A stretch of 62,026 bases of DNA, the filler included. It is 6 parts of 6 records of this genome, joined end to end, with 100 filler letters (N's around TTAATTAATTAA, not from the genome) between each part and the next. Parts side by side here need not be neighbours in the genome. Positions count along the whole stretch, not along the records: positions 25,366 to 35,994 come from SRR31156797_2496; 5 more parts are not named here. The stretch is one strand, 5' to 3'. The position numbers and the translations under genes were made by a program. Under the pieces are notes generated by a model that saw only the letters and a list, made by a program, of their open reading frames with translations, made no database searches and was not told the origin of the DNA. Below, piece after piece: positions 8,005-56,258 of the stretch; the stretch's first letter is position 1, and the number at the start of each line of letters is the position of its first letter.

Positions 8005-8104
8005 NNNNNNNNNNNNNNNNNNNNNNNNNNNNNNNNNNNNNNNNNNNNTTAATTAATTAANNNNNNNNNNNNNNNNNNNNNNNNNNNNNNNNNNNNNNNN
8101 NNNN
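8005..8104. other. Artificial contig linker
   Basis: 100 bp of N flanking TTAATTAATTAA. Confidence 0.98.
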
Positions 8105-18216: not shown

Positions 18217-18362
18217 ACTCCACTCGTAGCTTAAGTCAAAAGCTATTTTTAACGTCCTATAATACATGTGGCGCAAGGTTTCAGTTTTTTACATACTGGA
18301 AGTTGCGCCATTGAACATGCCCTGTTTAACCATCTTCAATTAATTGGCTAGAGAGAAGTAAG

Positions 18363-25265: not shown

Positions 25266-25365
25266 NNNNNNNNNNNNNNNNNNNNNNNNNNNNNNNNNNN
25301 NNNNNNNNNTTAATTAATTAANNNNNNNNNNNNNNNNNNNNNNNNNNNNNNNNNNNNNNNNNNNN
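25266..25365. other. Artificial contig linker
   Basis: N run with TTAATTAATTAA; organism changes across it. Confidence 0.98.
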
Positions 25366-25923
25366 GAACTCTTCCATATTATAAGCAACACCAGATCCTC
25401 CACCAGCAAGGGTAAATGAAGCTCTACTGATTACTGGAAACCCTATCTCTTTTGCAACTTTTACTGCCTCTTCTAAATTATAAGCATTAGCACTTTTGGG
25501 AAGGTCCATCCCGATCTTGATCATCGCTTCATTAAAAAGGTGTCTATCTTCCCCTTTTTTAATAGCTTCTGGATTTGCTCCTAAGAACTCAACTCCATCT
25601 AACATCCCTTTATCGTACATAGATGTAGCAACATTAAGAGCAGTTTGTCCACCCATTGTAGGTAGTATTGCATCTATTTTTTCTGTTTCTATGATCTTTG
25701 CAACCATCTCTTCTGTGATTGGCTCGATATAAGTTTTATCTGCAAACTCAGGGTCAGTCATAATAGTAGCAGGGTTAGAGTTTATTAAAACAACTCTATA
25801 TCCTAACTCTTTTAATGTTTTAGTAGCTTGAGTTCCCGAGTAGTCAAATTCGCAGGCTTGACCAATGATAATTGGACCTGAACCGATAAGTAAAATAGAA
25901 TGAATATCCTCTCTTTTTGGCAT
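25366..25923 (-). CDS. carB: Carbamoyl-phosphate synthase large chain, 5' part (truncated)
   Basis: [30 protein letters not shown]. Confidence 0.96.
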
Positions 25924-25991
25924 CCGCTTAATCCTTCAAAAAATATATAATAAAATTTGGAGATTATAGCCTAGAATCGCTGAAGCCTTGG

Positions 25992-26696
25992 TTAGTCCTT
26001 TGGTAGGATAAATTTTTGTGTTTTATACTCTCCCTCAGCATCAAAAAAACAATAATATAAAGTATCTTTTTTAACAGGAAGCTCTGTTAAAAAGCGTAGG
26101 GCAATATTTGCTTGTAAAGAAGCTATTTGCATCACAATAGGTGCTGCGATCCCCTCAGGTTTTCTATCAGTAATTGTAAAAGATGATGCAAAGGAAGATT
26201 TTTCAAATAAACACACTTGTCCATGAAAAGATTCAACACTTCCATAAAGCCATGGGATATTTTTCTCTTTTGAAAATTTATCTATCTCTTCTCTTACTAT
26301 TAAGTTATCGGTTGCATCAATAATAAGATCATAATAATCATCAGTAAAACTAAAAGTATTAAAATCTACTTCAAAGCTATTGATCTCAATATTTAAAGAT
26401 CTTTTTTGTAAAAGATTTTTAACTACTTCTGCTTTATTTTTCCCTTCATCTTCTACTGTAAAACCAATTTGCCTATGGATATTATGGATACTAACATCAT
26501 CAAAATCTATAAGATCAATAAACCCTATTCCACTAGACCCTAGAGCTAAACCTAAGCTACATCCAAGTCCTCCACAACCTATAATAGCGATCTTTTTAGT
26601 TTTAAGATTTGATTGGGTTATCTCTCCCCAAAGTTCGATTTGTCTTTTGTAAAATTCTTTCTCTTCAAGGGTAAGTTTTGTATCATTTGTTTTCAT
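25992..26696 (-). CDS. ThiF/MoeB/HesA-family adenylyltransferase
   Basis: IIGCGGLG, DFDDVSIHNIHRQ, DATDN; start set at ATG 26696. Confidence 0.85.
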   Translation of the reverse strand: MKTNDTKLTLEEKEFYKRQIELWGEITQSNLKTKKIAIIGCGGLGCSLGLALGSSGIGFIDLIDFDDVSIHNIHRQIGFTVEDEGKNKAEVVKNLLQKRSLNIEINSFEVDFNTFSFTDDYYDLIIDATDNLIVREEIDKFSKEKNIPWLYGSVESFHGQVCLFEKSSFASSFTITDRKPEGIAAPIVMQIASLQANIALRFLTELPVKKDTLYYCFFDAEGEYKTQKFILPKD

Positions 26697-26752
26697 GAAA
26701 ACCATTGTAACAATTTTTAACTTTTTTTGACTTAATTATGATAAAATATCTT

Positions 26753-29275
26753 ATGACAGAATTAAATATACAAATAGAAGAACTAATAGAAAATAAAGCA
26801 GAAGACTTTAAAATTGCCAAGGTTATTAAAAATGAGATCAAAACATATCTAAGCTCACTTGATGAGATATTCAATGAATCAAGTGGAAAAGATTTTTTTG
26901 TAAAACACACAAAAAAGATCGATGGTTTTATTAAAGTTATTTATAAATATCTTTTAAGAAAACATTTTGGCTCATATATGCCAATGAGTACCAATATTCC
27001 ACTGACTATTATAGCACTTGGAAGTTATGGAAGAGAACAATTATGTATCTATAGTGATATCGATATTATGCTTTTATATGAACAAACGAGTGGATACAAC
27101 CTAAAGCCTATTATGGAAGAGTTTATGACCCTTTCTTGGGATAGTGGCTTAAAACTAGGAAGTCGTGCCCATGAGATACAAGAGGTTCTTGAAGCAGTTC
27201 AAGAAGATGTTACGATAAAAACCTCTTTTTTAGAATCACGTATGATCTATGGATCACGACATTTATGGTTTAAATACCAAAACTCTCTTGTAAAAATAAG
27301 AAATTATAAACAAAAAGAGTTTGTGTTAGAAAAGCTTCAAGAACATGAAACAAGACTTACAAAAAATCCTTTAGATATGCAGCCAAATATAAAAGATGGC
27401 TATGGAGGGATGAGAGAATCAAATATGTTATTTTGGATACTCAATATAACTTATGGAGTTTCTAGTACTAGACAGATGAGTGATAGGCTTTTTTGCGAAG
27501 AGGAGTATAAAAAGTATCGAATAGCACTAGAGTATGTTTTTCAAGTACGAAATGCATTACATCTTTGTGCTAAAAAGAAACTAGATATAGTCACTTTTGA
27601 TATTTTACCTGAGATTAGTGATAAGCTTGGATTTAAAGATACTGTTCGGATTCCAAAAGAGCGTCAATGCATGGAAAAACTTTTTAAATCACTCCATACA
27701 ATTCATGGATTTACCCATCTTATTACAAAAAAAGTGATTAGAAGGTATCTTTTTGCTCCTGAGAAACTTTCACAAATCTATCAACATAGGATAAAAAAAG
27801 ATCTCTACTTATGTAATGATACTTTATATGCCTCTTTTCATAGAAAAGGGGTGAGTTTAAATCTCTTTTTAAAAGAGTTAATTGAGCTTCCAAACTATAT
27901 CAAAAGTTTTGATGTGTCATATGTTTTATTTGCCTATAAAACCATTATGCCAAATAAACTAGGGGTTACTACAAAAGCATTGATTAAAAATCTTTTACAG
28001 CAAAAAAACCTTTATCCTGTGATAGAGCTTTTATATAAAAGTGGGTTATTGGTTGAGATCATCCCAATTTTTGGAAAAATAGTAAATCAGCCTCAATTTG
28101 ATGGATACCATAAACATCCAGTTGATGCTCATAGTATAAGAACTTTATACCATATTCAAAATATACAGGACCCATTTGTAGCAAAAATGTATGAGAAACA
28201 AAATGATCGACAAAAGTTTATGATCAATTTAGTGGCTTTATTTCACGATGTTGGAAAAGGAAGAGGGAAAGATCATCATATAGTTGGACAACATCTATTT
28301 AAAAGATTCGCAAAATCTTTAGAGCTTAACGAGATCGAAACAAATAAAATATCTATACTGATTAGATACCATAATATGATGACAAAAGTTGCAACTACTG
28401 AAGATATATACTCTCAAAATGTTATTTTAGCATTTACTGGTATTATCACTTCTAAAGAGCTTTTAGAGATGCTTTTTATCATTACCTATGCAGATATTAA
28501 CTCAGTAGATTCAAAACTTTATAAAAGTTCAACATCTACATTATTAAAAGAGCTTTATTTACAAACTATTCCAGCATATGATAATGAAGAGCTTTTAAAA
28601 GTAAGTACTAGAAGAGTAAATAAAGAGAATGCTATTAAAAATAATAAGCTTTTTCAAACTCTTCCATTTACTAAACAAAAAAGAATATTAAAAGTGCAAT
28701 CAAATCAAATGTTCTTAAAGTATAAGGCAGAAGATATCATCAAAATAGCATTAAAAGCAATGGAAGTGAAAAATTATTATTTTGATATTAGTAATAAAGG
28801 GCATTTAAAGATCAAAATTATTCGAGAAGTTCCACTAAACCTTGGATATCTTTTAGGAAAGCTTCACTTTTTAAATATCTCTTCAATGGGAATCTATCAA
28901 CTTTTTGATCATAAAAAATTCTTTGAAATCACCTTTGATGAAAACTTAGATCAAGAGGAGATCTCTTTTATTACTGAAATTGTAGAGGAATCTTTTGATA
29001 TGCAAAGAGATATTAAACTAAAAAAACCTATTATCAATAAAAATGATATTGAAGTTGATTGTGAGCATACGGAAGAGTTGGCAAAACTAAATATTGTAGC
29101 AAAAGATCAAAAGGGTCTATTTAGTTATATCGCAAAAATATTTGATGAGTTTGAGATAGAGATACATAGTGCAAAGATCCAGTCAAATAAAGGGAAAGTA
29201 AATGATATGCTTCTTATTTCTAAAAATGGTAATTTTTGTACCAATAAAGAGAAGATTATAGAAGCTTTAACCTAA
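26753..29275 (+). CDS. glnD: PII uridylyltransferase (NTase + HD + ACT)
   Basis: ALGSYGRE...SDIDI nucleotidyltransferase motif, PNIKDGYGGMRE, FHDVGKG HD motif, C-terminal ACT-like DQKGL; start probably ATG 26753. Confidence 0.88.
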   Translation: MTELNIQIEELIENKAEDFKIAKVIKNEIKTYLSSLDEIFNESSGKDFFVKHTKKIDGFIKVIYKYLLRKHFGSYMPMSTNIPLTIIALGSYGREQLCIYSDIDIMLLYEQTSGYNLKPIMEEFMTLSWDSGLKLGSRAHEIQEVLEAVQEDVTIKTSFLESRMIYGSRHLWFKYQNSLVKIRNYKQKEFVLEKLQEHETRLTKNPLDMQPNIKDGYGGMRESNMLFWILNITYGVSSTRQMSDRLFCEEEYKKYRIALEYVFQVRNALHLCAKKKLDIVTFDILPEISDKLGFKDTVRIPKERQCMEKLFKSLHTIHGFTHLITKKVIRRYLFAPEKLSQIYQHRIKKDLYLCNDTLYASFHRKGVSLNLFLKELIELPNYIKSFDVSYVLFAYKTIMPNKLGVTTKALIKNLLQQKNLYPVIELLYKSGLLVEIIPIFGKIVNQPQFDGYHKHPVDAHSIRTLYHIQNIQDPFVAKMYEKQNDRQKFMINLVALFHDVGKGRGKDHHIVGQHLFKRFAKSLELNEIETNKISILIRYHNMMTKVATTEDIYSQNVILAFTGIITSKELLEMLFIITYADINSVDSKLYKSSTSTLLKELYLQTIPAYDNEELLKVSTRRVNKENAIKNNKLFQTLPFTKQKRILKVQSNQMFLKYKAEDIIKIALKAMEVKNYYFDISNKGHLKIKIIREVPLNLGYLLGKLHFLNISSMGIYQLFDHKKFFEITFDENLDQEEISFITEIVEESFDMQRDIKLKKPIINKNDIEVDCEHTEELAKLNIVAKDQKGLFSYIAKIFDEFEIEIHSAKIQSNKGKVNDMLLISKNGNFCTNKEKIIEALT

Positions 29276-29292
29276 TGTAATAAGGTAAACAT

Positions 29293-30495
29293 ATGGAAGA
29301 TATAAGTGGATTTTTTTTAACACTTTTTTTAATTTTGATCGTTGCACGATTTTTAGGTGAGCTTTTTGCACGTTATAATATTCCATCTGTTTTAGGGGAG
29401 CTTTTTGCTGGTATTTTATTAGGATCTTCTGTATTAGGCTTGATCCAACCTAATGAGATATTAAAAATACTAGCAGAAATTGGTATTATTTTACTCCTTT
29501 TTGAAGTGGGTCTTGAAACTGACTTTGAGCGTTTAAAAAATGCAGGAAAAAAGTCATTTATAGTGGCAGTTCTAGGGGTGATTTTACCTTTTGTATTTGG
29601 GTTTATAGCTGCATATTATCTTTTTGCTTTAAGTTTTACTATATCTTTATTTATAGCTGGGACTTTAACTGCCACAAGTATAGGGATCACTCTTAGAGTA
29701 CTCAAAGATATAAAGATGGAAGATACAAATATCGCTCAAGTAGTTATCGGTGCAGCAGTTATAGATGATATTATGGGGATTATTTTACTGGTATTTATTT
29801 ATGATTATTCTTTAACCCATGAGGTTGGTTTTAAGCATACTTTATCTGTAACAGCTATGATCATCCTTTTTTTAGTCTTTGCTCCCATTTTGGCAAAACT
29901 TCTCTCTATAATTATAAAAAACTATAAAGATAAATATCTAGTTCCAGGATATTTTCCAACGATTATTATCTCTTTAATTTTACTTTTTGCATACCTTTCT
30001 CATTTAATAGGTGCTCCAGCTATTTTAGGCTCTTTTGCAGCAGGAGTTGCTTTATCTAGAAAGTTTTTCTTACCATTTGGAACTATGCTAAAAGCAGATG
30101 CAAAACTAGTCAAAGAGGTAAAAAGAGATATGACCCCTATTATTCAGATCTTTACCCCTATCTTTTTTGTGATGGTTGGGCTCTCGGTGGATCTTAGTGT
30201 GATAGATTTTAGCTCTTTAAGTTTTTGGATCATGAGTATTACTTTTATTGTTTTAGCTTTTACAAGTAAATTTATTGCAGCATTCTTTATCTATCAAAAA
30301 TCATTTCGTAACAATGCCATTATTGGAGTTTCTATGATCCCAAGAGGTGAAGTGGGACTTATCTTTGCTGAGATGGGACGGGTTAATAATGCTCTTCCAA
30401 ATGATATCTATGCTATGCTTATTTTTGTGATCGTTATTACTACTGTGATCCCACCTTTTATTTTAAAAAGATATTTTAAAGTAGAATGTGTCTAA
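29293..30495 (+). CDS. Cation:proton antiporter (CPA2/NapA-like)
   Basis: Polytopic membrane protein; TATSIGIT, AAVIDD, MIPRGEVGLIF. Confidence 0.88.
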   Translation: MEDISGFFLTLFLILIVARFLGELFARYNIPSVLGELFAGILLGSSVLGLIQPNEILKILAEIGIILLLFEVGLETDFERLKNAGKKSFIVAVLGVILPFVFGFIAAYYLFALSFTISLFIAGTLTATSIGITLRVLKDIKMEDTNIAQVVIGAAVIDDIMGIILLVFIYDYSLTHEVGFKHTLSVTAMIILFLVFAPILAKLLSIIIKNYKDKYLVPGYFPTIIISLILLFAYLSHLIGAPAILGSFAAGVALSRKFFLPFGTMLKADAKLVKEVKRDMTPIIQIFTPIFFVMVGLSVDLSVIDFSSLSFWIMSITFIVLAFTSKFIAAFFIYQKSFRNNAIIGVSMIPRGEVGLIFAEMGRVNNALPNDIYAMLIFVIVITTVIPPFILKRYFKVECV

Positions 30496-30531
30496 AATTG
30501 CATAATAATTTTTTATACTAGAGAAATAAAT

Positions 30532-30954
30532 ATGAATAACTATCTTTTAAAAAAACTTGAAAACATCATTCGACGTATTTTTAACTCTATGGAATGTTTA
30601 GAGAATGCTGATATCAAAGTAAGCTATTTAGGTGAAAAAACCTTTGATAAAGAGGTGATTGATCAAAGATGTTTTCAGTTTAACAAAAGTAATTCAGACT
30701 TTTTATTTTTTGAACTTCTTATTTTAGAAAATGATGCAAAGCTTCATACCATAGCTTTAGAGCAATTTATGCAACAGATCATGTTTAAATATAATGTAGA
30801 AAATATAGCCTGTTATTTACACGATGGAAAAGAGACAGATAAAGACCATCAACAAAATCTTATAAAAAAGAATATCTTTGAAATAGTTTGTTCCAATGAG
30901 GAAGAATCACATACTGTTTTTGTAAATATTGACCCAGAGGAGTTTTTTAGTTAG
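30532..30954 (+). CDS. Hypothetical protein
   Basis: 140-aa ORF; no recognisable motif. Confidence 0.55.
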   Translation: MNNYLLKKLENIIRRIFNSMECLENADIKVSYLGEKTFDKEVIDQRCFQFNKSNSDFLFFELLILENDAKLHTIALEQFMQQIMFKYNVENIACYLHDGKETDKDHQQNLIKKNIFEIVCSNEEESHTVFVNIDPEEFFS

Positions 30955-31717
30955 ACTTTTTATTGTTCTTTTGACTTTCAATACTAAAGCGTATCAGATC
31001 TTCAGTGGTAACAATATGAGCTGGAAGTCTTTGTAAACACTCTAAAAATACCATACTTGTGCAGTATGCATCACTATATGCTCTATGGTGTTCCCCTTCA
31101 TCAATCTCAAGATGTTCTTTTAGGTATTTTAATCCATATCTTTCTATATCTATTAGTTTTTGTGAGAGATTTATAGTACATAGTTTTCTATTAAAAAGCT
31201 CCCCTAGATCATATTTTTTCATACTATCACTGATAAATTTATAATCAAAGTTAATATCATGAGCTACAAACACGTCATCTTCTAGAAATATTTTAAACTC
31301 TTCTAGTACATTTTGAATACTTGGTGAATCATGAGTCATCTCAGGAGTGATTCCTGTGAGTTCTTGGATGTTTTTAGGGATATCATAGGTATTTACCAAA
31401 GATTCATATTTTTCTACAATTTGACCATTTCGAAGTTTTAAAGCCCCTATTTCGATCATTTGACTTTTTTTAGGATTTCCTCCACTTGTTTCAATATCAA
31501 CAACACAAAAGGTTTGGTCTTCAATTTTTGTAGAAAGGGTTTTTAAACTGACAAATTCATCACTTATAAAAAGTGGTAGTCCATTATGAAGTAAAAGTTG
31601 TTTTTCTAACTCAATAGAGTCAAAAAAACGATCAGACTTTTCTAATATATGATCAAACTCTTGTCTACTAAGAGGTGATTCTAGAAGTTTTTTAAGGAGT
31701 TTATTAATGTATTTCAT
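30947..31717 (-). CDS. DEDDh 3'-5' exonuclease (DnaQ-like)
   Basis: VVDIETSG, VAHDINFD, HHRAYSDA; rpe-trpF-exonuclease order. Confidence 0.88.
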   Translation of the reverse strand: MKYINKLLKKLLESPLSRQEFDHILEKSDRFFDSIELEKQLLLHNGLPLFISDEFVSLKTLSTKIEDQTFCVVDIETSGGNPKKSQMIEIGALKLRNGQIVEKYESLVNTYDIPKNIQELTGITPEMTHDSPSIQNVLEEFKIFLEDDVFVAHDINFDYKFISDSMKKYDLGELFNRKLCTINLSQKLIDIERYGLKYLKEHLEIDEGEHHRAYSDAYCTSMVFLECLQRLPAHIVTTEDLIRFSIESQKNNKKSN

Positions 31718-32303
31718 TGAGCTTTTGGACAAAATCTATCATTTTATGTTTATCTTTTTTCCCTTTAGATTGCTCTACACCACTACTTACATCTACGCCA
31801 TAAAAATTATAAGATTTTAGCTCATGAAGATTTTCACTTTTGAGTCCACCTGCTAAGATAAACTTTGAACAATCAACACCCTCAAAGAATTCTAAAGCAA
31901 CTCTTTTTCCAGCTCCACCAAACTCCTCTACAAAAGCATCAATCAAAAAGTATTGATCTTGTGGTAAATTTAAGATGTCCTCTTTTTTTTGAACTCTTAC
32001 CACATCTATATATTTACTTTGTAAGGCTTGATAAAAATTTCCATCAGCATTTTCATGAATGATCTGTGCCATATCTACCATAGATCTTTTACAGATAAAA
32101 TCGATTTGTGGAGGATACATATTGACAAATAAACCTACACTTTGTACAAAAGGAGGAAGTTGTTCAATGATCTTTTTTGCATCATTTGGATGAATATATC
32201 TTGGGCTTTTTTCATAAAAAACAAACCCTAAAGCATCTGCACCAGCTGCAACTGCATCTAAAGCATCTTCTAAGTTGGTTATTCCACAAATCTTAACACG
32301 CAT
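31704..32303 (-). CDS. trpF: Phosphoribosylanthranilate isomerase
   Basis: MRVKICGIT, LAGGL, GVDVSSGVE. Confidence 0.95.
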   Translation of the reverse strand: MRVKICGITNLEDALDAVAAGADALGFVFYEKSPRYIHPNDAKKIIEQLPPFVQSVGLFVNMYPPQIDFICKRSMVDMAQIIHENADGNFYQALQSKYIDVVRVQKKEDILNLPQDQYFLIDAFVEEFGGAGKRVALEFFEGVDCSKFILAGGLKSENLHELKSYNFYGVDVSSGVEQSKGKKDKHKMIDFVQKLNEIH

Positions 32304-32306
32304 AGC

Positions 32307-32948
32307 TTATACTTTTAAAGAATCTATCGCTTTTGAATAATCATCGCTTCCATATACATAACTTCCCGCAACCACTACATCTACCCCAGCATTTTTGAGT
32401 TCCGTTATATTCTCACCATTTACTCCACCATCAACTTCAATAAGGCAATTTGGATTTCTTTTATTAATAAGCTCTTTAAGCTTTGCTGCTTTTTCAATCA
32501 CTGAAGAGATAAACTTTTGTCCTCCAAAGCCTGGGTTTACAGACATTAAAAGAACCATATCAAGGTCTTCTAAAAGATACTCTATTGTCTCAGGTGGAGT
32601 ATGAGGGTTTAGAGTAATAGCTGGTTTAATACCATAACTTCTAATCTTTTGAATAAGTCTATGGGGATGTTTTTCCTCTTCAATATGAAAAGAGATATAT
32701 TCTGGTTTGAGTGGAGCAAAAAGCTCCACAAAAAATGTATTGTTTTGAACCATAAGATGGATATCTAATGGTTTTGTAGCTACTTTTGCTACACTACTTA
32801 CAACAACTGGTCCAATAGTAAGATTAGGAACAAAGTGTCCATCCATCACATCCACATGAACAAGGTCACAACCCCCATCGCAAATAGCTTTCACCTCTTC
32901 GTTTAATTTTCCAAAGTCTGCACTTAATATACTTGGAGCAACGAGCAT
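32307..32948 (-). CDS. rpe: Ribulose-phosphate 3-epimerase
   Basis: APSILSADF, HVDVMDGHFVPN, MSVNPGFGGQ, EVDGG. Confidence 0.96.
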   Translation of the reverse strand: MLVAPSILSADFGKLNEEVKAICDGGCDLVHVDVMDGHFVPNLTIGPVVVSSVAKVATKPLDIHLMVQNNTFFVELFAPLKPEYISFHIEEEKHPHRLIQKIRSYGIKPAITLNPHTPPETIEYLLEDLDMVLLMSVNPGFGGQKFISSVIEKAAKLKELINKRNPNCLIEVDGGVNGENITELKNAGVDVVVAGSYVYGSDDYSKAIDSLKV

Positions 32949-33000
32949 AAAACTTCCTTTTATTTAAATTGTGAGATTATATCGTAATCTCATTTAACAC

Positions 33001-33035
33001 TCCACAATCATTTCACAATTGTTTTATAAGCTTCT
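33001..33035 (+). promoter_or_regulatory. Putative native promoter of the 34808 gene, with an OmpR/PhoB-type direct repeat
   Basis: CCACAAT (33002) and TCACAAT (33013) repeated at 11-bp pitch, then a TAAGCT -10-like box; adjoins the RBS in the reconstructed pre-insertion allele. Confidence 0.45.
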
Positions 33036-33278
33036 TTATATAAATTAAAGCCTTCCTATAAAAGATAACTTAAAAGGAAGGTAGAAATTTAAAAAGTGTA
33101 TAGATTTAGGTTTCATGCTTGAAGTACTAGAGAGTTCTAGTATTTTGAAGATGGAATTAATCCATCGTAAACAATTAAATGGTATCAGCTTTTATTTTTA
33201 TAGATGCTGATTTATAAAGGTATAAGTTTGGTTGTTTGAGTTTTTTAACAATTCATTGTCGATTGCATTATAAAAATA

Positions 33279-34514
33279 TTAAGGTTTAGCTACAAATACT
33301 CGTGTTGGTTCATATGGTTTGTTATGATTATAAATAGACCAAATTATCTTTGCAAGTTTTCTAGCTATGATAATAAGTGCTTCTTTCTTAGCACGTCCAA
33401 GAGCTAGTTGATTTTTATATATCTGTTTGAGTTCAGAATTATGGCGTACAGCAGCAATGGATGCTAGATAGAGTGCTTTTTTAGCATATTTTGCTCCACG
33501 CTTGGCAAGATGTCCAAACTTTTGAGTTTTACCCGATTGTTCTAGTGTTGGATAGAGTCCTAGATAACCTATGAAAGATTTAACATCATTAAATCTATCA
33601 ATATTTCCACACTCTGAGAGTATTGCTAAAAGAGTTTTATCAGATACTCCTGGGATAGTTCGAAGATTGTCTAATACTGAAGATATATAATTTTCTTCCT
33701 CATTAGATAAATCTTTTGGAATATCAAACAAACCTATCATCTCATCTTCTAAAGATTGAATTTGTGCTTTTAAAGTACGAATAAGAGATATATTTGACCT
33801 TATAGAATAGGCTCTTGCTTCTTTTGCTACACCTGAATAGATAGTATCTTTTGCAATAGCTAAAAGATGTTCCGCTTTATGTTGATTAAAGTTATTTCCT
33901 TTGATACCTCGAAAAGTTTTTAATATTCTATCTGTAGATACATAATCAAAGTGCTTTGCAGTTGGATACTTTTCAAGTAGTGCCATACCTGTTACAGAAA
34001 ATGGATCAGAAATCACTTTCTCAAGTTCTGGAAATACAACAGCTAATAAAGATGAAGTTTGTCTTTGGATAGATTTTAATTGTTCTTTTAAAGACTCTTT
34101 GTGTCTAAAAAGAACACGCAGTGATTGTAATTGATCTTCATTTACATAACCACTTGAATATCTACCACTTTTTATTAAAAGAGCTATCATTAAAGAATCA
34201 ATATTGTCATTCTTTACATATTTCATTGTATCCATATTCCTAAACTGTGATGTTTGATATGGATTCAATAATATCACACGGTAGTTTAAGTTTTTGAGAT
34301 ACTGATAAAGGTTTTCAAACAATAAACCAGTCGCTTCCATTCCAATAACAATATCACTTATATCACAGCAAAGTGACTGAATATTGGCAAGAAGTTTTTT
34401 AAACCCACTAGTTGAAGAATGAAAACTAAATGGTAAAATAATCATCTCTTCCTTATCATCAATAACACAAGCAACATTTGTTTCTTTAGCTATATCTATT
34501 CCAATGTAAAACAT
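33279..34514 (-). CDS. IS110-family recombinase/transposase
   Basis: RuvC-like DEDD (GIDIAK, GMEATG, KNDNID), coiled-coil linker, Tnp domain (TIPGVS, YLGLYPTLEQSGK with the catalytic Ser, ARKLAKIIW). Confidence 0.96.
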   Translation of the reverse strand: MFYIGIDIAKETNVACVIDDKEEMIILPFSFHSSTSGFKKLLANIQSLCCDISDIVIGMEATGLLFENLYQYLKNLNYRVILLNPYQTSQFRNMDTMKYVKNDNIDSLMIALLIKSGRYSSGYVNEDQLQSLRVLFRHKESLKEQLKSIQRQTSSLLAVVFPELEKVISDPFSVTGMALLEKYPTAKHFDYVSTDRILKTFRGIKGNNFNQHKAEHLLAIAKDTIYSGVAKEARAYSIRSNISLIRTLKAQIQSLEDEMIGLFDIPKDLSNEEENYISSVLDNLRTIPGVSDKTLLAILSECGNIDRFNDVKSFIGYLGLYPTLEQSGKTQKFGHLAKRGAKYAKKALYLASIAAVRHNSELKQIYKNQLALGRAKKEALIIIARKLAKIIWSIYNHNKPYEPTRVFVAKP

Positions 34515-34547
34515 TTAAATCCTTAATATTAAAAAATATGGTTTATG

Positions 34548-34783
34548 CTCATAGCCTCCTATTATAGATGGTAAGATTTTATTCTTCCACAGCTTCCTAA
34601 ATAGATGAGTTATTACAACCACAATAATACGCTTTCTTGGGTAGTCAAGCTACAAGGAGTCACAGATCATTCAATGGTGCAATAGACTATGAATTGTATA
34701 AAGCTTCAAATAAACCAGTCTTTATACTAGCACAAACTACAAAGTATCAATCCTTATTCAGTTTCTGTAATAAGTTTTGATAA
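34548..34783 (-). ncRNA. Predicted IS110 bridge RNA (5' hairpins, target-binding loop, donor-binding loop)
   Basis: Hand folding: 5' hairpin 34745-34782, second stem 34682-34740, internal-loop module 34611-34684 with target-matching CTCCTT/AAAG, internal-loop module 34548-34609 with donor-matching TAGGAAG/ATAGGAG. Confidence 0.78.
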
Positions 34784-34788
34784 TTTGT

Positions 34789-34794
34789 ATTATA
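34789..34794 (-). promoter_or_regulatory. -10 box (TATAAT) at the IS110 left end
   Basis: Perfect TATAAT 2 nt inside the core and 6 nt before the 5' hairpin of the predicted bridge RNA. Confidence 0.65.
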
Positions 34795-34807
34795 GGAGGA
34801 GGATAAA

Positions 34808-35362
34808 ATGAAAAAACTTTTATTACTTATATCACTTACAACTTTAGGATTTAGTTCACCTTATTATGGTGATTCAGGTAAAAACTATTATAATGATATG
34901 GAAACAGGCTTTGTAAAATACAAAGTGATCTCCTCTACTCCTGTAACTAAAGAGGTTACAAGAAGAGTACGAGTTGGGGATGAGATACAAGATAGAGTAG
35001 TGAATAAAAGAGTACCATGTGAAAATAGCTATAGAGATACTAACTCTATTGGATTTGATACTATTTTAGGAACTGTAGCTGGAATTGCAATTGGAAATCA
35101 ATTTAAAAATCATAGAGATGCAGCTAAAGTGATTGGTGGGATTGGTGGAGGATACCTTGCTAATCAAATGAGAAATAGTAGCTCAGGAGATTGTTATCAA
35201 CAAACAACTATTCAAGAGTATATCCCTAGATATGAAACTAAAATAGAGCAAATAACAATTGGATATAATAATTGTGCTTTAGTAGATGGTAAAAAGATCT
35301 GCAAAGAGTCTCAACATAAAAGAGACTTCTTAAAAATTAAAAAAACTTATACTGTTTATTAA
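34808..35362 (+). CDS. Secreted glycine-zipper 2TM domain protein (YcfJ-like)
   Basis: Signal peptide MKKLLLLISL; GTVAGIAIGNQF...AAKVIGGIGGGYLANQ glycine zipper. Confidence 0.8.
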   Translation: MKKLLLLISLTTLGFSSPYYGDSGKNYYNDMETGFVKYKVISSTPVTKEVTRRVRVGDEIQDRVVNKRVPCENSYRDTNSIGFDTILGTVAGIAIGNQFKNHRDAAKVIGGIGGGYLANQMRNSSSGDCYQQTTIQEYIPRYETKIEQITIGYNNCALVDGKKICKESQHKRDFLKIKKTYTVY

Positions 35363-35483
35363 TCTAAACAGTATAGGTAAAAACTCCCTAAATAATACAA
35401 ATTTATATAAAAAATTTTACAATTCCACAAATATTCCATCAATTTTTAGTATTTTATTGTAAAATATTTTATTATATTGAACA

Positions 35484-35994
35484 ATGGAAAGGATTACAAT
35501 GTTTGGAGCGTCTAAAAGGGATTTAGATATCTTAGATGATTTTTTTGAAGAGTTTATGGAATTTGCAATGTACAAAAAAAACAAATTCATATTTACAAAA
35601 AGTGCAGGCAACAGTGATGTTAAAAACCTTATGTCAAAGTGGCAAAGCAAAATTGATGAATTCGATAAACGAATTAAAGATGATATGAGAGTTATGGGTG
35701 AAGTTGTTTTAACTACAGATAAAATAGAACAAGGGATTTTTAAATGTAGAATTCATTCTAAAACTTCAAATCCTATGATCCATACTCTTGTTGAAAATGT
35801 TAACAAGATGCTTAACTCTTTAGAAAGTAGTTTAGGTAGTTTAGGATTAACTTTGGGGGAATATTCTAATAACAACTATACTTCCAAGATCTCTATCCCT
35901 TCACAAATTCAAGCAGAGATGTTACAAGTAATGGAATCTGTTAACAACTTAGGTGAAGCTTTAGCAAACTCAGCTAAACAAAACCTCTCAAATG
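35484..35994 (+). CDS. Methyl-accepting chemotaxis-like protein, 5' part (truncated)
   Basis: Campylobacterota MCP pre-signalling pattern (GIFKCRIHSKTSNP...YSNNNYT...VNNLGEAL); start could be 35499. Confidence 0.7.
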
Positions 35995-36094
35995 NNNNNN
36001 NNNNNNNNNNNNNNNNNNNNNNNNNNNNNNNNNNNNNNTTAATTAATTAANNNNNNNNNNNNNNNNNNNNNNNNNNNNNNNNNNNNNNNNNNNN
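35995..36094. other. Artificial contig linker
   Basis: N run with TTAATTAATTAA; sharp GC jump. Confidence 0.98.
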
Positions 36095-43772: not shown

Positions 43773-43872
43773 NNNNNNNNNNNNNNNNNNNNNNNNNNNN
43801 NNNNNNNNNNNNNNNNTTAATTAATTAANNNNNNNNNNNNNNNNNNNNNNNNNNNNNNNNNNNNNNNNNNNN
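43773..43872. other. Artificial contig linker
   Basis: N run with TTAATTAATTAA; GC drops sharply. Confidence 0.98.
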
Positions 43873-56158: not shown

Positions 56159-56258
56159 NNNNNNNNNNNNNNNNNNNNNNNNNNNNNNNNNNNNNNNNNN
56201 NNTTAATTAATTAANNNNNNNNNNNNNNNNNNNNNNNNNNNNNNNNNNNNNNNNNNNN
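56159..56258. other. Artificial contig linker
   Basis: N run with TTAATTAATTAA. Confidence 0.98.

Follow-up and report, generated by a model that had tools for sequence, protein, structure and literature searches.

A putative bridge RNA with Shine-Dalgarno-matching target guides in an IS110-family element of Campylobacterota

The element and its insertion site

An insertion sequence (IS) of the IS110 family was found in a stretch of 62,026 nucleotides (the whole stretch, filler included, is called the window here), on the piece at 25366-35994 that comes from record SRR31156797_2496. The element at 33051-34798 is intact, belongs to the IS110 group and is IS621-like. Read on its own strand, it consists of a left end with a 5′ non-coding region predicted to form a bridge RNA, a recombinase gene, and a long right-end non-coding region. 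It lies antisense to the gene that follows it, whose Shine-Dalgarno sequence it interrupts. Coordinates of the features are collected in Table 1.

The recombinase matches PF01548 (1e-28) and PF02371 (7e-21) and scores 215 bits against the NCBIfam model NF033542, 'IS110 family RNA-guided transposase', for which the cut-off is 140. It aligns with the IS621 transposase chain 8wt6 (E = 3e-17, phmmer), and in that alignment GIDIAK, MEATG, KNDNIDS and EQSGK face the IS621 motifs GID, EATG, D..D and SG. As in the IS110 group, a DEDD RuvC-like domain at the N-terminus is combined with a Tnp domain that has the catalytic serine at the C-terminus. The protein is 411 aa long, compared with 328 aa in IS621.

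An empty allele of the insertion site was located in the nearest genome, G001 (contig C303). Window positions 33003-33050 and 34797-34850 are both 100% identical to it, and the two flank matches overlap by exactly 2 bp, AG. The uninterrupted site reads ...TATATAAATTAAAGGAGGATAAAATG, or, in a fuller reading of the same contig, ...AAATTAAAGGAGGATAAAATG. These findings bear out the boundaries and the interrupted Shine-Dalgarno sequence proposed in a first-pass annotation of the window, and the insertion is seen to split AAAGGAGG-N5-ATG of the open reading frame (ORF) at 34808. On the element strand the left junction is formed by the flank ...CATTTTATCCTC, the core CT and the left end CCTATAATAC..., and the right junction by the right end ...TTTTATAGGAAGG, CT and the right flank TTAATTTAT... 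Each junction carries a copy of the core and the empty site a single one, and, as in the IS110 group, neither a target-site duplication nor terminal inverted repeats of the ordinary kind are present. The core is CT in the relatives too, except in three elements where it is TT. Full-length relatives at 74-75% nucleotide identity have the same ends as the window element.

The host gene retains AG-GA.. after the insertion, with ..TATAGG of the left end placed in front of it, and the result is GGAGGA. In every relative the left end is CT followed by C[C/G/A]TATAAT, so that a post-insertion Shine-Dalgarno sequence arises likewise, by construction.

Table 1. Features of the IS110-family element, its predicted RNA and the interrupted gene, in window positions.
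Feature	Position	Strand	Evidence or remark
IS110-family insertion sequence, 1748 bp	33051..34798	minus	Empty site in G001; includes the left-end junction copy of the core (34797-34798, CT on element strand)
Second copy of the core dinucleotide, right-end junction	33049..33050	AG on +, CT on element strand	2-bp overlap of the flank matches to the empty site
Host gene with interrupted Shine-Dalgarno sequence, 184 aa, glycine-zipper 2TM domain (PF05433), ORF intact	34808..35362	+	ORF listing; PF05433; orthologue downstream of the G001 empty site
Shine-Dalgarno sequence after insertion, AGGAGGAGGA	34794..34803	+	Read from the sequence; ..TATAGG from the left end, then the retained AG-GAGGA
Recombinase/transposase, 411 aa, DEDD RuvC-like and Tnp domains, ORF intact	33279..34514	minus	Pfam, NCBIfam, IS621 alignment
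Bridge RNA region (predicted)	34543..34785	minus	Single-sequence fold, RNAalifold, pair counts
TATAAT, left-end positions 5-10	34789..34794	minus	Invariant in 21/21 aligned relatives
5′ stem-loop of bridge RNA	34782-34745	minus	
Closing helix round both arms, 9 bp	34693-34685 with 34556-34548	minus	
Target-loop closing stem UGAU/AUUA, 4 bp, covarying	34669-34666 with 34628-34625	minus	
Left target guide GUGACUC+CU, only CUC+CU matching the site used	34655..34663	minus	5′ side of the target-binding loop; -3 covaries
Right target guide AAGAAAG (AA-AG pairs core + 2 nt), then handshake C at 34631	34631..34638	minus	AG -> AA in the TT-core subclade
Left donor guide AGGAAG, equal to right-end positions -7..-2	34593..34598	minus	Five covarying variants
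Right donor guide UAGGAG (complement of core + CCTA of the left end), then handshake G at 34555	34555..34561	minus	
Right-end non-coding region, 228 nt, conserved hairpins	33051..33278	minus	RNAalifold on 14 relatives: 16 pairs, 10 with compensatory changes
Terminal inverted repeat CCTTCC with GGAAGG	33081-33076 with 33056-33051	minus	

Relatives of the element

Relatives were drawn from three sources. The first was a set of 184 genomes of the same family, 57 of which gave some match, with three full-length elements (those at 74-75% identity mentioned above); the second was the contigs of GTDB representatives, with 26 loci; and the third was metagenome contigs, from which the best 80 of 105 relatives were used. 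Twelve of these 80 metagenome loci were dropped because of a contig end or a rearranged end. The left end was located in 104 elements in all. Named records of the relatives belong to Arcobacter, Halarcobacter, Poseidonibacter, Sulfurovum and Sulfurimonas, with a few bins labelled otherwise.

Four relatives, L007 (872-2153), L008 (870-2153), L034 and L033, from two metagenome-assembled genomes, share a common deletion of about 470 bp in the transposase gene. In L007 the transposase gene, which has lost its start codon, is split into ORFs of 80 aa and 156 aa. Both ends and the RNA region survive in L007, L008 and L034; for L033 the query match breaks off well before the right end, which could not be located. 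The four deleted copies are located at four different gene starts, and this looks like a non-autonomous derivative mobilised in trans. No full-length copy was seen in the two genomes with deleted copies.

Predicted bridge RNA

The layout of the predicted RNA is the same as that of IS621: it is located in the left end, 5′ of the recombinase gene, and has two internal loops. Its 62 proposed pairs are paired in 80% of cells in an alignment of 21 relatives, compared with 40-47% when the partners are slid by 1-3 columns. Thirty-two pairs have changed on both sides, and the covariation score was reached by none of 500 shuffles. Helices 3, 5 and 7 are 94-100% paired and include compensatory changes. 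A scan of 32900-35000 with Rfam 15 gave no family at threshold (best E above 1), though whether that release includes a bridge-RNA model was not checked.

The TATAAT of the left end is probably, by analogy, the -10 box for both the bridge RNA and the transposase, and also part of the right-donor sequence. Its invariance is partly circular because the motif served to locate the ends.

The target arm has a 12-nt 5′ strand, CUGUGACUCCUU, an inner stem GUAG/CUAC and a 12-nt 3′ strand, CCAAGAAAGCGU, while the donor arm consists of ..UUUAGGAAGCU, an inner stem and CUAUAAUAGGAGG. The first-pass annotation had drawn an internal loop between the outer strands TATTGCA (34684-34678) and TGTAATA (34617-34611) and the inner strands GTAG/CTAC (34653-34650/34644-34641), with CTCCTT at 34659-34654 and AAGAAAG at 34638-34632, all on the minus strand. 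Each of these coordinates is right and the loop is present, but not to the extent drawn, since the UGAU/AUUA stem within it reduces the loop to 12 nt per side. In relatives, the strands facing each other in the target loop (34654-34665 and 34629-34640, minus strand) can base-pair (UUUCU/AGAAA) because the target is pyrimidine-rich on either side of the core, and RNAalifold with relaxed settings closes the loop by this pairing.

Donor guides

In 103 of the 104 elements the right donor guide is complementary, through its 3′ part, to the core and the three bases that open the left end, and the guide tracks five left-end variants (CT-CCTA, CT-CGTA, CT-CATA, CT-TGTA and TT-CGTA). Likewise, the left donor guide matches right-end positions -7 to -2 through five variants (AGGAAG, GAAACG, GAAATG, AGGATG and TAAAAG), with one mismatch in 12 elements and a mis-called right end in 2 rows. 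Donor position 7 (-1), an invariant G, is unread by the left guide and lies opposite the invariant C placed after the right target guide. With these matches the donor loop is established, which makes its 5′ neighbour the target loop, as the first-pass annotation had named it in an IS110-type element with a 5′ bridge RNA; the donor loop lies 3′.

The change of the core from CT to TT in three elements is mirrored by a change from AG to AA in both right guides. In this subclade (L013, L018, which is the same as L043, and L019) the left guide ends in ..UUCC-UU, both right guides in ..AA and the targets in ..CC-TT-T. Relative to the AAGG motif the subclade is shifted by one base, and CAT is 8 nt from the core in all three.

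Target guides and the sites used

The left target guide ends in YUC-CU in the CT-core elements and in UCC-UU in the three TT-core elements, and the right target guide ends in AA-AG, or in AA-AA with the TT core. In 85 distinct CT-core junctions a guide C at -3 is matched by a target C in 36 of 47, and a guide U by a target T in 26 of 35 (Fisher 6e-11; the observed value was reached by 0 of 2000 permutations). Guide and target alike hardly vary at -2, -1, the core and +1. When every guide column was scanned against left-flank positions -14 to -1 in both senses, -3 gave the only signal, and no covariation was found beyond +1 on the right flank, where only the colinear register was scanned.

As covariation is confined to -3, guide specificity extends over about 7 nt and not 14, namely YTC-CT-T(T), or A(A)AGGAR when read on the mRNA strand. 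The proposal that the CUC-CU and AA-AG guides jointly spell the complement of AAAGGAG, with CT as the core and the element antisense to the gene, is borne out by these data. Covariation between guide and target, which the first-pass annotation had suggested testing, was found at -3 and in the core, but not at -10 to -4 or beyond +1, and the 14-nt programmed target GTGACTC-CT-TTCTT is not supported.

We hold, with a probability of roughly 0.8, that this is an intact element with a bridge RNA whose YUC-CU/AA-AG target guides pair with the Shine-Dalgarno core, and that this holds clade-wide in Campylobacterota. Under such a mechanism the RNA would pair with 5′-YTC-CT-T(T)-3′; reverse-complemented, this is A(A)AGGAR, a Shine-Dalgarno core. 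The anti-Shine-Dalgarno sequence of 16S rRNA pairs with mRNA, and the left guide would pair with the sense strand of the host gene in much the same way. The donor loop would read the right end, the core and the left end (..AGGAAG(G)-CT-CCTA..). Once recombined at the CT core, the element would lie 8-9 nt upstream of the ATG, in antisense orientation to the gene, and the left end (CT followed by CCTATAAT) would leave a GGAGGA Shine-Dalgarno sequence before the gene.

Several observations weigh against this interpretation. No covariation between guide and target was detected at -10 to -4, where an element's own target fitted its guide no better than that of another element (p = 0.5). The left guide of the window copy, GUGACUC-CU, matches the site used, TATCCTC-CT, at 5 of 9 positions, namely CUC+CU only. 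In G001 there are 27 sites with one mismatch to GTGACTCCTTT, all of them better than the site used, and only 2 of the 27 are at gene starts. This exact element is represented by one copy only, its closest relatives being 75% (genomes) and ~91% (a wastewater contig) identical. Most of the sites to which the short match applies are not gene starts, as set out below, and the junctions of related strains may represent one event, so that independent events may be fewer than the 88 junctions counted. Finally, that the RNA is made, that recombination proceeds via a circle, and that the pairing is causal we infer. Contigs of four sequencing runs were compared with the element; the run marked as a possible source yielded short stray pieces only, among which no joint and no circle junction was seen, and this speaks neither for nor against a circle.

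The window copy could instead be programmed for one unsampled site, GTGACTC-CT-TT(CTT), and have landed in a Shine-Dalgarno sequence by a low-match or half-match accident. Positions 1-4 of its left guide (GUGA) are unlike the U-rich guides found in all relatives and mismatch the site used, and half-match recombination is reported, in the available text of a preprint, to account for about half of the non-target insertions of IS621. However, sites of the same kind (81/88) are used by elements with quite different distal guides, and the distal positions never track the targets. Moreover, the exact GTGACTCCTTT is absent from G001, and the contig ~91% identical to the window element, from a different sample (a wastewater run), has the same left end joined to GA-TTAAAA-ATG, again 8 nt from an ATG. 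An off-target accident is accordingly improbable.

It is also very unlikely that the functional guide RNA is located in the structured right-end region, as in the IS1111 seekRNA elements, with the 5′ loops not serving as guides. That region is long and non-coding, has hairpins with compensatory changes, and corresponds in position to the RNA that IS1111-type elements are described as having downstream of the transposase. However, all four guide segments are in the 5′ region, where they covary with the donor ends and the core in the order and geometry of IS621. On visual inspection only, nothing in the right-end region was found to follow donor or target, and its sole TTCCTTTT stretch is without conservation in the relatives. 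The region itself is kept across the clade (right ends of L003-L064), with GCCGTTT..AAACGGC as the terminal repeat of the Sulfurovum type. IS621-type models do not call for a structured right-end region.

Distribution of insertion sites

Left junctions with at least 20 nt of flank numbered 88 when counted as distinct. CAT, which is ATG on the other strand, was found 5-10 nt from the core in 81 of them, at a spacing of 8 nt in 43, 9 nt in 29, 10 nt in 6, 7 nt in 2 and 5 nt in 1. CAA, a TTG start on the other strand, was found in 2, and neither in 5 (L020, L126, L129, L132 and L134). The spacing to CAT is equal across lineages, every one of which uses both 8 and 9. L129, L132 and L134 are one lineage with the left end CT followed by TGTATAAT, inserted at polypyrimidine stretches such as CCCTCTCTTTTC before the CT, and these may be a different site class for that lineage.

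For comparison, YTCCTT sites were collected from 400 kb, taken at regular intervals, of two complete host genomes, with starts defined from ORFs. Of 471 such background sites, 52 have CAT at 5-10 nt together with an ORF of at least 80 codons, 361 are inside ORFs of at least 100 codons, and 58 are other non-ORF sites. The expectation that homologous elements would be found a few nucleotides upstream of start codons is thereby upheld (81/88 compared with 52/471), and the preference for Shine-Dalgarno sites is an inherited property of the whole clade in Campylobacterota. However, 89% of the background sites are away from gene starts, so pairing alone does not explain the census, and the 7-nt guide match leaves the association with start codons unexplained.

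One way to account for the excess is survivorship, with insertion at any YTC-CT-T and loss by selection of the copies within genes, so that those in ribosome-binding sites remain. It accords with guides that specify only about 7 nt, and with a background in which 361 of 471 sites are in ORFs, where insertion is usually harmful. If all intragenic copies had been lost, however, gene-start-like sites would make up 52 of the 110 non-ORF sites (47%), compared with the 81-83 of 88 (92-94%) observed (binomial p ~1e-19 to 1e-21), although 'non-ORF' is a crude class that may hide the starts of short genes. The spacing is also narrower than at background starts, with 8-9 nt in 72 of 81 insertion sites compared with 29 of 49 background gene starts (p = 1.5e-4). 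Nor are the sites obviously harmless. The upstream neighbour of the interrupted gene is a ribulose-phosphate 3-epimerase gene on the opposite strand (32307-32948), and because the two genes are divergent the insertion parts the interrupted gene from the short intergenic region expected to hold its promoter. An outward sigma-70 promoter for the host gene was not found in the left end by a consensus scan, the consensus being one that may not fit Campylobacterota promoters, and the candidate region is without conservation. Survivorship as the sole explanation is thus unlikely.

The association with start codons and its narrow spacing go beyond what a 7-nt seed or survivorship would produce. We tentatively propose, at less than even odds, that two matches are involved, namely a 7-nt RNA seed resembling the anti-Shine-Dalgarno sequence (YUC-CU, AA-AG) and a guide-independent (T)TCAT read 8-9 nt from the core. 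As (T)TCAT is beyond the reach of the 9-nt left guide, it would probably be read by the recombinase. A T precedes CAT in 85% of 73 insertion sites compared with 60% of 60 background gene starts, and CAT opens an ORF of at least 80 codons no more often at insertion sites (53 of 66) than at random CAT-N8-9-YTCCTT sites (30 of 42). The narrow spacing, the T before CAT, these ORF shares and a T-richness of the flanks equal to that of ordinary gene starts fit a direct reading of (T)TCAT without proving it.

Two other sources of specificity were considered and set aside. U-rich guide flanks were not retained, as T is no more frequent at the insertion sites than at the usual gene starts, and no threshold of T count lifts gene starts above 57% while keeping the insertion sites. 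An RNA segment that pairs with CAT was also sought; the conserved GAUC 5′ of the left guide sits in the stem that closes the loop, and no match was obtained.

Composition of the window

The window is a chain of six pieces, joined at 8005-8104, 25266-25365, 35995-36094, 43773-43872 and 56159-56258, where two runs of 44 N are separated by 12 bases. The pieces differ abruptly in G+C content, which is near 0.30 at 26-36 kb, 0.58 at 36-44 kb and 0.43 at 1-24 kb, and the six are perhaps from different organisms. No further copies of the element were found within the window, where one 12-mer resembling the left end, with 1 mismatch, occurs at 18254 with no right end paired to it.

Comparison with known IS110-family systems

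The first-pass annotation had regarded targeting of Shine-Dalgarno sequences as undescribed. However, IS900 and IS901 of Mycobacterium avium, also of the IS110 family, are reported to insert in a single orientation between the Shine-Dalgarno sequence and the start codon (Doran 1997), and a genome analysis of 2021 gives CATGNNNNNNTCTCCTT as the IS900 target motif and finds intragenic insertions to be rare. Since this behaviour was already reported, the targeting strategy was known in the IS110 family. The window copy and 81 of the 88 junctions of relatives show the same oriented insertion, and the IS900 motif likewise combines CTCCTT with CAT at a set distance, a likeness drawn from insertion behaviour. 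The IS900 motif CATG-N6-TCTCCTT differs from (T)TCAT-N5-6-YTC-CT-T in the present elements, where CAT lies nearer to YTC-CT-T and need not be followed by a G. An older IS900 consensus is said to read CATGN(4-6)*CNCCTT. The hosts of IS900 and IS901 are GC-rich, and the present elements are in another phylum, Campylobacterota. A complementary-strand ORF, hed, is described as spanning IS900, whereas no plus-strand ORF of at least 50 aa was found within 33051-34798.

In the literature searched, no paper linking IS900 to a bridge RNA was found, and a search combining IS110, Shine-Dalgarno and bridge RNA returned only an unrelated co-mention. IS900 is not mentioned in the main text of the 2024 papers (Durrant et al.; the seekRNA paper), the supplements of which may show Shine-Dalgarno-like targets.

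IS621 of Escherichia coli is the closest mechanistic model. In the available accounts of that element, the core is part of each of the four guides, the left target guide has a length of 9 nt, the natural right target guide pairs with the core and 2 nt only, and one or two handshake bases after each right guide pair with position 7 of the other DNA. The present element shares with it the DEDD and Tnp recombinase, an RNA in the left end with the target loop before the donor loop, pairings that take in the CT core, a 9-nt left guide and a short (4-nt) right guide, the handshake bases, and a left-donor position 7 that is unread. IS621 is described as targeting repetitive extragenic palindromic (REP) elements, with mismatches poorly tolerated, and natural IS110 targets as usually 0-2 positions off the guide; here, in contrast, only about 7 nt track the target, and the sites typically mismatch about half of the distal guide positions. 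A 9-bp closing helix round both arms and a long structured right end also set the present element apart. A junction promoter, formed by the right end and left end of the circle, is reported for IS621.

ISPpu10 of Pseudomonas putida is reported, in the accessible part of a 2026 preprint, to require a guide-independent determinant in the 5′ extension of its target, and CAT in the present sites is 8-9 nt away on the same side of the core. The ISPpu10 determinant is described as a GC-rich stem-loop in one repeated intergenic sequence, whereas the candidate here is a short (T)TCAT found before many genes. By analogy, a combination of RNA seed and (T)TCAT would be the sequence-type counterpart of the ISPpu10 stem-loop gate, and it could also explain the CATG of the IS900 motif. 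IS1111-type seekRNA elements (ISEc11 and others), as far as they are described in the text available, also have a DEDD transposase and an RNA-guided, specific target, but differ in having the RNA downstream of the transposase and subterminal inverted repeats; the four guide segments here are upstream.

Implications for the IS110 family

The element is a member, in a new phylum and with many relatives, of an already known kind of targeting. The case joins IS900-type landing on translation initiation signals with a bridge-RNA mechanism, a link not found in the literature searched, and yields a set of 104 natural elements in which the guides are mapped, along with about 88 mapped sites. Their donor guides behave as in IS621, whereas the target loop is a short seed for a motif that is present before hundreds of genes per genome, and not for one unique site. 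For engineered bridge recombinases, a natural short seed, possibly with a second, guide-independent determinant, bears on off-target behaviour. For annotation, the predicted position of such elements is antisense to a gene and 8-9 nt upstream of its ATG, with a GGAGGA Shine-Dalgarno sequence left before the gene.

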